Source: Leucoraja ocellata
Lineage: Eukaryota
Direction of reading: 5' to 3'
Assembly (NCBI GenBank): GCA_036785375.1
Contig: JAWMAR010000201.1
Location: 1,922,001 to 1,986,000 of the forward strand
DNA length: 64,000 nt
In this document: positions 2,675 to 63,149 of the stretch, in pieces
Layout: each line of letters opens with the position of its first letter
Position numbering within the stretch: position 1 is the stretch's first letter
Position numbers and translations under genes: made by a program
Notes under the pieces: model-generated
The model's input: only the letters and a program-made list of their open reading frames with translations
Database searches by the model: none
What the model was told of the DNA's origin: nothing

Positions 2675-2710
2675 ATCTACACGACCTAAAATTCGGTTTT
2701 GAAGAAACAG
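2675..2710 (+). CDS. Microexon, 36 nt: (D)[11 protein letters not shown]
   Basis: cccttttttttcag|ATCTAC...GAAACAG|gtcagt; the GAAACAG|gtcag end matches the 36-nt class. Confidence 0.8.
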
Positions 2711-62700: not shown

Positions 62701-63149
62701 GTGGGGAGGGGGGTGGGGAGGGGGGGTGGGGGATGGGGATGTGAGGAAAAGGGTTGGTGGAATGGGTTGGGTGAAGGGAGGTGTGGAGAAGGGGTGGTGG
62801 TGGAGGGGTTTGTGTGGGAGGGGGTATGCGGGAGGGGATGTGGGTGTGGGGGGTGTGGGATGGGTGCGTGGGGGAGAGAAGGGTGTGTGAGGGAGGGGAC
62901 TGTGTGGGAGGGGGGTTTGCAATATATGTCGTGACCGACTACGCGAGACATGTTCTAATACGTAGCATGCCACACGCTGACAAGAGTTGCCAAGTAACAT
63001 TTACATCCTTTTAAAGATTACATAGAAAATGATGGAGTAAACATTTTCCCAAATGTACGCAATATTCTGTATGAGGATCTATTGTATTTCACGTGGTACA
63101 TTGTTACCTTGTGTATTAACAGACGAACCAATACTTCAGCATGACGCAG
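2675..63149 (+). CDS. Partial multi-microexon gene (>=32 exons) encoding a long 21-aa-periodic coiled coil; both ends outside the window
   Basis: All exons AG..G|GT with lengths a multiple of 3, alternating 27/36 nt. Only the phase-1 frame is open in all of them (phase 0 has TGA in the 50113 exon; phase 2 has stops in the 19836, 36028, 38966 and 46596 exons). Hydrophobic residues fall at positions 4, 11, 14 and 18 of the 21-aa unit. Confidence 0.88.
2995..3290 (+). mobile_element. CR1 RT fragment
   Basis: [30 protein letters not shown]. Confidence 0.85.
3633..3659 (+). CDS. Microexon, 27 nt: ASKLNARNT
   Basis: tttattttcag|CAAGC...ATACAG|gtaaca. Confidence 0.7.
5575..5825 (+). mobile_element. 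SINE-like/retroposon tail (related fragments at ~5140-5310, ~23000-23250, ~26430-26530, ~32920-33030)
   Basis: cagtctgaagaagggtttcagcccgaaatgtcgcctatttcc..gatgctgctgcacccactgagtttctccagca motif recurring in both orientations. Confidence 0.65.
7180..7215 (+). CDS. Microexon, 36 nt: [12 protein letters not shown]
   Basis: tatttttcatgtcag|AATTC...GTATGG|gtgagg. Confidence 0.7.
7450..9130 (-). mobile_element. Decayed CR1 LINE
   Basis: Minus-strand [26 protein letters not shown] and VVEADT motifs. Confidence 0.8.
9400..10680 (+). mobile_element. CR1 LINE fragments (3' UTR followed by RT to 3' end)
   Basis: [29 protein letters not shown]; 3' UTR with gatcagccatga. Confidence 0.85.
10921..11120. 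other. Assembly gap (200 N)
   Basis: N run; flanks 10721-10870 and 11121-11268 are near-identical. Confidence 0.99.
11552..11578 (+). CDS. Microexon, 27 nt: DESLRTKDT
   Basis: tatacttatag|ACGAG...ACACGG|gtaaat; peptide resembles DEELREKDA. Confidence 0.8.
11900..12185 (-). mobile_element. CR1 fragment
   Basis: [36 protein letters not shown]. Confidence 0.85.
12260..13090 (+). mobile_element. GC/CpG-rich non-autonomous retroposon-like element
   Basis: Shares gggggtgggtgagggagaaaccgttt / cggcctaacatcg / gtcttccaccacag..gatgtttgtgttaaattt motifs with 16700-18960(-), 39000-39360 and 57460-57922. Confidence 0.7.
13681..13716 (+). CDS. Microexon, 36 nt: [12 protein letters not shown]
   Basis: tttcgcctcag|AATTT...AAAGAG|gtgaga. 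Confidence 0.8.
13745..14015 (-). mobile_element. tRNA-derived SINE (degenerate)
   Basis: Reverse strand begins gcagcacaatgacgcagctactggaact..ccagagaccccggttagatc (A/B-box-like head). Confidence 0.6.
14490..15450 (-). mobile_element. Highly decayed CR1 LINE
   Basis: Reverse complement resembles the CR1 RT and 3' end seen at 17600-18600 and 21100-22000. Confidence 0.65.
15751..15777 (+). CDS. Microexon, 27 nt: DALSIQKIK
   Basis: ttttgcctgggcag|ATGCA...TTAAAG|gtaata; weaker acceptor. Confidence 0.6.
17038..17158. repeat. 21-bp minisatellite, about 6 copies (cag[c/g]tccgagtcccgc[a/t]gc[c/a]t)
   Basis: Read directly from the sequence. Confidence 0.9.
17195..18605 (+). mobile_element. Young 5'-truncated CR1/HER1 LINE (ORF2 RT with two frameshifts, 3' UTR, (TTATATG)n tail)
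   Basis: [55 protein letters not shown]; frameshifts near 17590 and 18070. Confidence 0.97.
19709..19711 (+). CDS. Possible 3-nt microexon (ATG, adds one Asp in phase 1)
   Basis: atccttag|ATG|gtaaatgct after a long T-rich tract; occupies the otherwise empty slot between two 27-nt exons. Confidence 0.3.
19836..19862 (+). CDS. Microexon, 27 nt: ELEEKLKNA
   Basis: attatattgcag|AATTA...ATGCGG|gtaaat. Confidence 0.75.
20365..22010 (+). mobile_element. Two adjacent decayed CR1 fragments
   Basis: [20 protein letters not shown] motifs and 3' UTR. Confidence 0.8.
22128..22163 (+). CDS. Microexon, 36 nt: [12 protein letters not shown]
   Basis: ttttaaatttcag|AAAAG...AAATAG|gtgaga. Confidence 0.75.
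22229..22395. other. Assembly gap (167 N) followed by a CT-rich tract
   Basis: N run. Confidence 0.99.
22754..22780 (+). CDS. Microexon, 27 nt: EETLSLKET
   Basis: gtgcttccaaaag|AAGAA...AGACAG|gtaact. Confidence 0.7.
24814..24837 (+). CDS. Microexon, 24 nt (short variant in a 36-nt slot): EFSQCRID
   Basis: tctttttttctcgggttcag|AATTT...TTGATG|gtaagt (consensus donor). Confidence 0.7.
25932..25958 (+). CDS. Microexon, 27 nt: DEELREKDG
   Basis: tttgctttgttacag|ACGAA...ATGGAG|gtgtcg; 8/9 aa identical to the exon at 38966. Confidence 0.85.
27775..27810 (+). CDS. Microexon, 36 nt: [12 protein letters not shown]
   Basis: tcatttacttgcag|AAATA...AAACAG|gtcagt. Confidence 0.88.
28850..29460 (+). mobile_element. 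Decayed Rex1-like LINE 3' part
   Basis: tgcatcacagattggtttgggaacagctctgccc..; tail ttttactctgtacctcggt. Confidence 0.6.
29750..30285 (+). mobile_element. CR1 3' fragment
   Basis: [23 protein letters not shown]; 3' UTR. Confidence 0.85.
31213..31239 (+). CDS. Microexon, 27 nt: EYDLESKDA
   Basis: gcttctatttgcag|AATAT...ATGCAG|gtaaca. Confidence 0.82.
31644..31715. repeat. Perfect 24-bp tandem repeat x3 (aatgtatattccgtgtcacatatg)
   Basis: Read directly from the sequence. Confidence 0.95.
31830..33620 (-). mobile_element. Fragmented Rex1/Babar-like LINE
   Basis: [24 protein letters not shown]...IKCFERL (RT N-terminus); PRELTS..TAVYIP (endonuclease). Confidence 0.75.
33996..34031 (+). CDS. Microexon, 36 nt: [12 protein letters not shown]
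   Basis: tttatgtttgtttag|AACTA...TTTCAG|gtaagg. Confidence 0.82.
34700..35300 (-). mobile_element. Fragment of an REL-endonuclease non-LTR retrotransposon (HERO-like)
   Basis: [10 protein letters not shown]......DL.SMDA...SFLMRA.YDVL.SP followed by a [16 protein letters not shown] knuckle-like motif. Confidence 0.6.
36028..36054 (+). CDS. Microexon, 27 nt: DINKRSYVD
   Basis: ttctgttcccttag|ATATT...TGGACG|gtaagt. Confidence 0.78.
37060..37980 (-). mobile_element. Decayed CR1 LINE
   Basis: SC.TNLL.IFEEV...[22 protein letters not shown]. Confidence 0.8.
38036..38077 (+). CDS. Microexon, 42 nt (long variant in a 36-nt slot): [14 protein letters not shown]
   Basis: tgttcactttag|ATTGT...CGTCAG|gtaacg. 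Confidence 0.7.
38966..38992 (+). CDS. Microexon, 27 nt: DEELREKDA
   Basis: ttcactttgcag|ATGAA...ATGCAG|gtatgg. Confidence 0.88.
39000..40085 (+). mobile_element. GC-rich non-autonomous element head (39000-39360) followed by a Rex1-like RT fragment
   Basis: [19 protein letters not shown]; degenerate FSDD and TKELVLDFR. Confidence 0.7.
40472..40507 (+). CDS. Microexon, 36 nt: [12 protein letters not shown]
   Basis: tctttccaatttag|AAATC...AAACAG|gtcagg. Confidence 0.9.
40700..41520 (-). mobile_element. Rex1-like LINE remnant inside the duplicated unit (paralogous copies at 44180-44970, 46850-47160, 50370-50690, ~59540-59630)
   Basis: [36 protein letters not shown]...[10 protein letters not shown]. 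Confidence 0.8.
42388..42414 (+). CDS. Microexon, 27 nt: EEKMRLGKG
   Basis: tgtgtattaacag|AGGAA...AAGGAG|gtaaat. Confidence 0.85.
43323..43358 (+). CDS. Microexon, 36 nt: [12 protein letters not shown]
   Basis: tctttacaatttag|AAATC...AAACAG|gtcagt. Confidence 0.9.
44975..45620 (+). mobile_element. Chimeric insertion: CR1 ORF1-like piece (44975-~45220) fused to a young Rex1-like RT piece
   Basis: [20 protein letters not shown] (CR1 ORF1 SGNH-like motif); [54 protein letters not shown]. Confidence 0.85.
46045..46071 (+). CDS. Microexon, 27 nt: DGSMHQKEA
   Basis: tgtgtaataacag|ACGGA...AAGCAG|gtaaat. Confidence 0.85.
46596..46631 (+). CDS. Microexon, 36 nt: [12 protein letters not shown]
   Basis: ctttccattttag|ATATC...AAACAG|gtcagg. 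Confidence 0.9.
47605..47631 (+). CDS. Microexon, 27 nt: DEIMRQREA
   Basis: tgtgtattaacag|ACGAA...AAGCAG|gtaaat. Confidence 0.88.
48910..49730 (-). mobile_element. Penelope-like element RT fragment
   Basis: [45 protein letters not shown]. Confidence 0.9.
50113..50148 (+). CDS. Microexon, 36 nt: [12 protein letters not shown]
   Basis: cttccattttag|AAATC...AAACAG|gtcagg. Confidence 0.9.
51126..51152 (+). CDS. Microexon, 27 nt: GGNIHQNET
   Basis: tgtgtattgacag|GGGGA...AAACAG|gtaaat. Confidence 0.8.
52836..52967. mobile_element. Short foreign segment beginning with a hAT-like terminus, at a deletion junction
   Basis: caagggttcccaaccaggggtaaatttacc.. interrupts the unit consensus (ttctaaca|tcacc in paralogs). 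Confidence 0.5.
53419..53445 (+). CDS. Microexon, 27 nt: DEPMHQNDT
   Basis: tgtgtattaacag|ACGAA...ACACAG|gtgaat. Confidence 0.82.
54281..54329. repeat. 12-bp tandem repeat x4 (gttctgtctgca)
   Basis: Read directly; sits at an internal deletion junction of the unit. Confidence 0.85.
54837..54875. repeat. Perfect inverted repeat, 17-bp arms and 5-nt loop
   Basis: tcccttctactctactt-cacgt-aagtagagtagaaggga. Confidence 0.95.
55219..55254 (+). CDS. Microexon, 36 nt: [12 protein letters not shown]
   Basis: ctttcttttctag|ACGTC...AAGCAG|gtcagg. Confidence 0.9.
55350..55955 (-). mobile_element. Gypsy LTR-retrotransposon pol (RT) fragment without LTRs
   Basis: [45 protein letters not shown]. Confidence 0.9.
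56464..56490 (+). CDS. Microexon, 27 nt: DGKMRQYEA
   Basis: tatgtattaacag|ACGGG...AAGCAG|gtgaat. Confidence 0.85.
57460..57922 (+). mobile_element. 5'-truncated GC-rich non-autonomous retroposon with (TTGTA)n tail
   Basis: Absent from the paralogous site at ~54090 (catatcatgaaatactattaggccg); tail gacaaataaattgtattg.. Confidence 0.8.
59284..59319 (+). CDS. Microexon, 36 nt: [12 protein letters not shown]
   Basis: ctttccattttag|AAATC...AAACAG|gtcagg. Confidence 0.9.
60191..60217 (+). CDS. Microexon, 27 nt: DETTRQKEA
   Basis: tgtgcattaacag|ACGAA...AAGCAG|gtaaat. Confidence 0.86.
62434..62469 (+). CDS. Microexon, 36 nt: [12 protein letters not shown]
   Basis: ctttccattttag|AAATC...AAACAG|gtcagg. 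Confidence 0.9.
62527..62918 (+). repeat. G-rich low-complexity tract (GGGG/GTG)
   Basis: Dense G-runs replacing part of the unit's intron. Confidence 0.9.
63123..63149 (+). CDS. Microexon, 27 nt: DEPILQHDA
   Basis: tgtgtattaacag|ACGAA...ACGCAG|gtagat. Confidence 0.82.

Follow-up and report, generated by a model that had tools for sequence, protein, structure and literature searches.

What is encoded by the tiny exon-like segments scattered over some 60 kb of DNA in Leucoraja ocellata? The stretch that raises this question, hereafter the window, is 64,000 nucleotides long and corresponds to positions 1,922,001-1,986,000 of contig JAWMAR010000201.1 (here C201; assembly GCA_036785375.1), read on the forward strand. 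The original prediction, made from the letters alone, was of a hidden gene of at least 32 symmetric micro-exons, mostly of 27 and 36 nt, that encode a modular coiled coil. All 32 of these segments are indeed present, with an AG acceptor, a GT donor, a terminal G and the predicted sizes, and the spliced frame is open as claimed: together with one exon that we add, the 33 exons give 340 codons in the phase-1 frame with zero stops. As detailed below, these segments bear the marks of selected exons, and we propose, at a probability of roughly 0.6, that the window covers the middle part of a gene of about 190 micro-exons encoding a soluble coiled-coil rod with a C-terminal ligand-binding B30.2 head, about 2,100 residues in total.

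The exons of the window lie on the forward strand and total 1,020 nt, comprising 18 of 27 nt, 13 of 36 nt, one of 24 nt and one of 42 nt. In the first 39 kb the 36-nt exons occupy 2675..2710, 7180..7215, 13681..13716, 22128..22163, 27775..27810 and 33996..34031, and the 27-nt exons 3633..3659, 11552..11578, 15751..15777, 19836..19862, 19973..19999, 22754..22780, 25932..25958, 31213..31239, 36028..36054 and 38966..38992, with the 24-nt exon at 24814..24837 and the 42-nt exon at 38036..38077. The exon at 19973..19999, which follows an intron of 110 nt, is the one newly added to the original set, and the exon at 3633..3659 has an alternative acceptor at 3,618 that would yield a likewise open exon of 42 nt. 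Splice sites are weak in two of the 33 exons, at 22,754 (an AAG acceptor) and at 25,932 (a GTGTCG donor), and the window includes two N runs in which further exons could be hidden.

As a test against chance, we searched the window with a fixed splice-site rule that is blind to length and translation, although its donor list is not fully blind because the rule was written after the exons had been seen. This search showed that: 1) on the forward strand there are 14 calls at 27 nt and 14 at 36 nt, an enrichment of about 4-fold over a mean of 3.45 (maximum 9) for the 44 other lengths between 15 and 60 nt; the reverse strand has 3 and 7 calls, respectively. 2) A stop in the phase-1 frame occurs in only one of the 28 forward-strand calls, whereas the two remaining frames are interrupted in 15 and 11 of them. 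3) A terminal G is found in 26 of these 28 calls as against 1 of 10 on the reverse strand. The peak at 27 and 36 nt was not seen in flanking control DNA.

From 40 kb onward the window consists of tandem intron-exon units that are about 60-90% alike. These young units begin with the 36-nt exon at 40472..40507, followed by 36-nt exons at 43323..43358, 46596..46631, 50113..50148, 55219..55254, 59284..59319 and 62434..62469, and are interspersed with 27-nt exons at 42388..42414, 46045..46071, 47605..47631, 51126..51152, 53419..53445, 56464..56490, 60191..60217 and 63123..63149; an intervening 36-nt exon after 51126..51152 was not found. Growth is thus directly visible in the DNA as tandem duplication of intron-exon units of 1.5-3.5 kb, each with a 36-nt and a 27-nt exon. 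Using profiles built from the flanking intron only, we recovered 10 units of each family between 36 and 76 kb, and splice sites and frame are intact in all 10 of the 27-nt units and in 9 of the 10 36-nt units. In the remaining unit (~48.4-48.6 kb) the exon is gone: the upstream intron of the 36-nt family is followed there by neither an acceptor nor an exon (48394..48553, forward strand). Neutral simulations give a probability of ~1e-3 to 5e-8 for all units being intact, a value to be read with the caution that badly decayed units could escape detection because the profiles came from exon-bearing copies. The pairwise dN/dS ratios of the youngest units are 1.08 (27-nt) and 2.18 (36-nt), from few sites and pairs that are not independent. 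Selection seems to act on the frame, the splice sites and the heptad core rather than on the exact sequence.

These data also bear on the possibility that the segments are non-coding, being either splice-like motifs carried along in tandem repeats or the remnants of a dead gene. We consider this extremely improbable, even though the dN/dS ratios of the young units are not below 1 and no RNA read was found on the segments in runs that are apparently from another species and were partly read: stops are absent from one frame only, splice sites are intact in 19 of the 20 repeat units, and the heptad pattern, the open B30.2 exon and the colinear relatives in another order, all described below, also speak against it.

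To what larger unit do these exons belong? We scanned 1.116 Mb of C201 with a chain score trained on exons of the array itself, and found that the window lies wholly inside, and makes up about 12% of, a much longer array on the forward strand (array C), whose micro-exons extend over ~510 kb from window-relative position -315,679 to +193,241. The scored chain contains ~192 phase-1 calls (104 of 27 nt and 77 of 36 nt) amounting to ~1,970 amino acids, against 4 calls on the opposite strand. The strict alternation of sizes in the original prediction does not hold as a rule, but it survives as a tendency, with 124 of the 169 adjacent 27/36 pairs of the whole array alternating. The suggested inspection of the flanks for a B30.2 exon proved fruitful: array C ends in a B30.2/PRY-SPRY exon, outside the window at C201:2,116,208-2,116,728 (window +194,208..194,728) on the forward strand and in phase 1, in which an open domain is followed by a stop and an AATAAA signal. 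It matches the Pfam SPRY model with an E-value of 5.7e-15, and its best match among solved structures is BTN3A1 (PDB 4n7i, E 1.8e-26). The Ig, transmembrane (TM) and C-type lectin exons that had likewise been suggested for the flanks were not found. In the scanned 1.116 Mb there is only one B30.2 exon of the chondrichthyan clade defined below, and it stands at the end of the array in the correct phase; no extra B30.2 exons were found inside the arrays in genome searches that scored 109-150 of ~1,000 candidates. It is therefore likely that the exons of array C and the B30.2 exon are spliced into one transcript coding for about 2,100 residues, from a predicted gene spanning C201:1,606,321-2,116,728 (window-relative -315,679 to +194,728).

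Alternatively, array C could comprise several tandem rod-only genes or promoters, such that the exons of the window would be headless or only the 3' part of the array would be joined to the B30.2 exon. Most of the related gene models are short (175-460 aa), neither of two neighboring arrays (A and B, see below) has a B30.2 exon on the scanned part of C201, and at a second family locus, on contig C253, a 50-kb stretch without exons (792-842 kb) separates an upstream array, which ends there without a B30.2 exon, from a short downstream gene. Array C, however, is unbroken, with a largest spacing between exon calls of 15 kb and a median of 2.1 kb, on a single strand and in a single phase, and aligners that miss micro-exons produce short gene models, so that short models are to be expected. 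We accordingly regard a division of array C into several genes as fairly improbable, and proceed with the single gene.

The predicted protein would consist largely of a coiled coil. The heptad assignment originally given for the pair of 9- and 12-residue exons is borne out over 336 exon calls: the hydrophobic share at the three a positions of the 21-residue pair is 0.74, 0.91 and 0.80, and that at one d position 0.89, while Lys (0.49) and Thr/Ala predominate at the remaining two d positions. Over the whole array, successive 12-residue exons are spaced by exactly 21 residues in 40 of 76 cases, a share that is lowered by missed calls. As all exons are symmetric in phase 1, duplication, loss or skipping preserves the reading frame, and as a 12- plus a 9-residue exon make up exactly three heptads, such pairs also preserve the coiled-coil register, which extra 9-residue exons would shift. 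An alpha-helix rises by ~0.15 nm per residue, and hence 1,970 residues, or about 280 heptads' worth, would form a rod of up to ~290 nm.

We then sought relatives using HMMER against 1.84 billion representatives and cluster look-ups. A word-index protein search with the B30.2 domain of array C gave no match among longer proteins, and the ESM Atlas returned generic SPRY clusters only; the profile searches recovered the catshark protein XP_038671249 and a family of teleost proteins of ~1,620 residues. The chondrichthyan family as assembled includes models from Scyliorhinus (catshark; XP_038668997, XP_038672306-10 and XP_038671249), Leucoraja (XP_055510696), Narcine (electric ray; XP_069775384-90), Cetorhinus (basking shark; XP_078422387) and Callorhinchus (chimaera; XP_042191566-8). 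Their automatic names are TRIM39/58/69-like or zinc-binding protein A33-like, but SPRY is the sole Pfam domain in all seven models scanned, and the RING and B-box domains implied by these names were not found. A FastTree analysis of 67 B30.2 domains (the top 60 by family-profile score, 3 from teleosts and 4 of our own exons, with 13 isoforms or duplicates left out and a midpoint root) places 14 of them, including that of the array C gene, in one clade with a support of 1.0. This clade also holds two unnamed proteins of 267 and 1,697 aa, the latter of which (P0127) has a hydrophobic N-terminus, an 8-residue tandem repeat and insertions in its B30.2 domain.

The models share with the array C gene not only this B30.2 clade but also the same 9- and 12-residue blocks on paralogous exons, and the array C gene displays phase-1 27/36-nt rod exons directly 5' of its B30.2 exon. 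The named models differ in length, at 175-945 aa (most of them 175-460 aa) as against the ~2,100 aa predicted for the array C gene. Further, 35 exon calls of the C253 paralog tile colinearly on the catshark protein XP_038671249 (945 aa) with a score of 302. Shuffling the order gives 180 +/- 17, with none of 300 shuffles reaching 302, and runs of array C exons score no more than 124.5. Of the 34 neighboring exon pairs, 5 abut exactly; this colinearity supports the spliced design for the family. In addition, the internal blocks that distinguish database isoforms of the relatives measure 6, 7, 9, 9, 9, 16 and 18 aa, and are mostly exon-sized. Thus, judged by its sequence, the array C gene is a member of a multi-copy chondrichthyan coiled-coil plus B30.2 family. 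The bias in exon length and frame, the heptads, the repeat units and the B30.2 clade together uphold the original proposal of a lineage-specific vertebrate micro-exon gene with a three-heptad module of 27+36 nt. Its author did not recognize the gene as described; in our literature search, judged by titles or the beginnings of abstracts, no description of this family was found, though automatic database models do exist.

How does this gene compare to known systems? The original prediction offered the BG/butyrophilin heptad exons and the Schistosoma micro-exon genes (MEGs) as analogs, and the resemblance stands at the level of design, while tests of membership in the butyrophilin (BTN), BG or MEG families came out negative. 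In butyrophilins, too, heptad repeats lead into a B30.2 domain at the C-terminus (PMC4046983), and a single-exon B30.2 also occurs in array C; butyrophilins differ in having IgV/IgC and TM regions and few heptads, as against ~280 heptads and no Ig or TM exon found for the array C gene. In BG genes the long coiled coil of the tail comes from many symmetric split-codon mini-exons, in numbers that differ between genes, and the true heptads cross the exon borders (PMC4046983, PMC5938342). Array C also uses many symmetric split-codon mini-exons for a long coiled coil. However, BG exons are of 21 nt (or 18/24 nt), number 13-36 per gene and follow Ig-V and TM exons (PMC4046983, PMC5938342), whereas array C has ~190 exons of 27/36 nt and a terminal B30.2, a domain not described for BG in the portions of these papers accessible to us. 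Only 1 of the 192 array C calls is of 21 nt, and 181 are of 27 or 36 nt.

Among other B30.2 proteins, the TRIMs differ in that the rod of array C is micro-exonic and about ten times longer than a TRIM coiled coil. In TRIM39, TRIM21, TRIM58 and A33, as in array C, a coiled coil is followed by a C-terminal B30.2 encoded in one exon (PMC2657112). The search upstream of arrays A, B and C turned up no RING-pattern exon. The closest domain layout, judged by layout alone, is that of guinea-pig enterophilin-1, a soluble, far shorter mammalian protein with a long leucine zipper and a B30.2 domain. A role with SNX1/EGFR is described for enterophilin-1 (PMC13749957). The NLR-B30.2 architecture, in which NACHT-LRR exons are spliced to a B30.2 exon, is not found here, as the NLR gene 5' of array A has its own stop. 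In Schistosoma MEGs most of the coding sequence is split among very short exons with long introns in between (bioRxiv 10.1101/2023.06.21.545858), and array C too is composed mostly of very short symmetric exons. Nevertheless, MEGs are secreted schistosome products, while the relatives of array C are chondrichthyan and no signal exon was found for it, and the likeness extends to gene design only. Finally, the teleost proteins of ~1,620 aa (Anabas XP_026230924, Channa XP_067384923 and Epinephelus XP_033506678) share a long coiled coil ending in B30.2, but differ in their hydrophobic N-terminus, 11-17 N-glycosylation sequons, a B30.2 outside the clade and no 21-residue period. These belong to a generically named family (P0162-P0167) with a signal-like N-terminus, many sequons and PRY-SPRY, and such a secreted-type B30.2 protein is itself unusual. 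The array C gene therefore resembles a membrane-free butyrophilin or a BG tail, yet on the features tested it fails membership in the BTN, BG, TRIM, NLR-B30.2 and MEG families.

This raises the alternative of a butyrophilin/BG-like product, either secreted or anchored in the membrane, with signal, Ig or TM exons that were missed and with the rod as a giant juxtamembrane or extracellular stalk. The BTN3A1 match of the B30.2 domain points this way, as do the position of heptad repeats after the TM segment in BTN and BG and the split-codon mini-exons of the latter (PMC4046983, PMC5938342), the hydrophobic start of P0127, followed by basic residues, the signal-like N-terminus of the separate teleost family, and a mild enrichment of sequons in arrays A and B. 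On the other hand, no Ig-pattern exon was found upstream of the predicted 5' ends of arrays A, B and C, and Pfam detected no Ig region in the seven scanned models. No convincing signal or TM first exon was found in the 17-50 kb upstream of five array starts (A, B, C and two on C253), and a search there for the relatives' N-termini, or for a hydrophobic first exon common to these starts, gave nothing significant. Three hydrophobic candidates upstream of these starts are unrelated to one another, and arrays A, B and C include no TM-like stretch. The N-terminus is non-hydrophobic in 5 of 8 family models, and two of the other three, which are short and begin just before an internal exon, look like intron read-through. 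The teleost family, moreover, has no 21-residue period and does not group with the clade. Sequons in array C number 15, against 10.9 +/- 2.9 in shuffles (p 0.11). We hence judge a membrane-bound or secreted protein unlikely. A by-eye likeness of the N-terminal part of P0127 to the start of array A was considered and is not supported.

Several observations weigh against a single soluble protein of ~2,100 residues. The in-frame ATG held by the first call of array C is only a putative start; three of the eight family models have a hydrophobic N-terminus, and sequons in arrays A and B are marginally above shuffles (p 0.049 and 0.027). The predicted length is matched by no model, the longest named one being of 945 aa and the unnamed one of 1,697 aa. 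The cross-species colinearity concerns the paralog, array C itself showing only single-exon resemblances to catshark XP_038668997, and blastp matches of its rod to the relatives are not significant at a realistic database size. Amino acids of the youngest units display no sign of purifying selection. Array C contains three 200-N runs, and its contig order could be wrong, since strand flips occur at N runs on C253. As to expression, eight RNA runs, of which the seven with raw reads were read to 1-32%, yielded no junction-spanning read or transcript for the array C gene; in four runs several exon-only bins are without reads, and the B30.2 exon has zero depth in all four runs that cover the last exons, whether by reads or contigs. 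Reads on window positions 38,000-57,900 fall mostly on interspersed repeats, with no exon-exon joint among the joints listed. However, most reads are less than 95% alike, so that the runs look like those of another species, and because of this, of tissues that are not known and of the partial reading, the absence of RNA weighs little.

The neighborhood of array C contains two further arrays, both outside the window. Array B (C201:1,433,908-1,586,038, reverse strand, 52 calls) starts 20 kb upstream of array C in a head-to-head arrangement with no N run between them, and array A (C201:1,144,134 to ~1,431,900, forward strand, 119 calls) ends at the same 200-N run as array B. One might therefore consider arrays A, B and C as a single gene of ~970 kb with 363 exon calls and ~3,900 aa, in which block B was inverted by an assembly error or by a real inversion. 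This would account for the one B30.2 exon on C201 for three arrays, and would fit with the end of array B at an N run, with the preservation of the 27/36 alternation at both joints when B is flipped, and with the strand flips at N runs on C253. We nevertheless hold it to be quite improbable: the boundary between B and C is without an N run and a gap-free head-to-head pair is also found on C253, array C appears by eye to open with a block resembling the one conserved at the N-terminus of the short paralogs, with an in-frame ATG, and a spare 3' end with a B30.2 exon, which might be that of A or B, is found on the unplaced contigs C3233 and C3305. Attempts to join these two contigs to the ends of array A or B gave only interspersed-repeat matches.

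Further B30.2 exons related to that of array C are found on C253 (two, facing outward), C3092, C3233 and C3305, and those on C253, C3233 and C3305 are preceded by the same 27/36 type of micro-exon. The second family locus, C253:737,714-1,926,252, has micro-exons in samples across 1.19 Mb and near-identical blocks ~40 kb apart. Two strand flips in it coincide with N runs and mirror-image duplicates and are read as scaffolding artifacts; in one segment between two N runs (C253:1,389,218-1,440,850) the neighboring reverse-strand exons are repeated on the forward strand, and it is likely a mis-scaffolded duplicate haplotype. In light of these artifacts, the number of genes and the assignment of a 5' block to the gene of the window are provisional. 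Small contigs (C2012, C3092, C3233 and C3305) resemble alternate haplotypes, C2012 being ~97-98% identical to the region of the window, and the assembly seems to retain duplicates. An isolated forward-strand 27-nt call at C3233:36,291, inside a reverse-strand array, has the same translation as the array C call at window -230,529 and was possibly carried by a repeat. Elsewhere in the genome there are at least 140 more distant B30.2 exons (C367, C813, C591, C622, C666 and others), many densely clustered.

Near the 3' end of the array C gene, an intron holds an open stretch of 274 aa (window +181,607..+182,428), which resembles a Tc1/mariner transposase. Array C is followed on its 3' side by an intronless gene for a Shaker channel of 500 aa with a poly-Gln stretch (window about +235,976..+237,478), whose best match is Kv1.2/KCNA2 and which is a useful synteny marker. 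On the 5' side of array A are two tandem NACHT-LRR genes (C201:1,086,040-1,087,776 and 1,122,760-1,128,586), of which the nearer one includes LRR exons of 174 and 168 nt plus a terminal exon of its own and is ~480 kb away from where array C starts; a fusion of this gene to the array was considered and rejected, since it ends in its own stop.

On the favored interpretation, of one soluble rod with a B30.2 head, tandem duplication of 36-nt + 27-nt units would lengthen the rod with frame and register kept, and its length might also be tunable through exon skipping. The rod would probably self-associate, thereby holding two or more B30.2 heads far from the N-terminal end, and the protein may serve in the cytosol as an adaptor or tether of long reach. 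A precedent might be seen in the soluble BG tail (zipper protein), which regulates actin-myosin (PMC4046983), or in a membrane-free butyrophilin tail. As for the ligand of the B30.2 domain, a structural or trafficking partner is about as likely as an innate-immune one.

More tentatively, these genes might represent an ancient cartilaginous-fish family of soluble, length-tunable rulers, encoded by genes of 0.5-1 Mb with 190 to more than 360 symmetric micro-exons, with rods of 300-550 nm, and forming a third, membrane-free branch beside the butyrophilins and TRIMs. The micro-exons would then serve as a cassette library, with duplication and combinatorial skipping setting the length and surface of a rod that positions a butyrophilin-type B30.2 sensor head, and the family would have been overlooked because aligners and gene finders miss micro-exons. 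If true, such genes would be among the most exon-rich of vertebrates.

The design is not categorically new, as coiled coils with B30.2 domains and heptad mini-exons are each already known. The locus nonetheless offers a clear natural example of how a coiled coil grows through duplication of exon pairs that leaves the register intact, with young and old units adjacent. If the spliced product exists, it would also be a case of very dense micro-exon splicing, and several megabase-scale chondrichthyan genes would presently be annotated only as short "TRIM-like" fragments, a concrete and testable blind spot of gene annotation. As it spans sharks, batoids and a chimaera, the family bears on the origin of the heptad tails of butyrophilins and BG and of B30.2 sensors.

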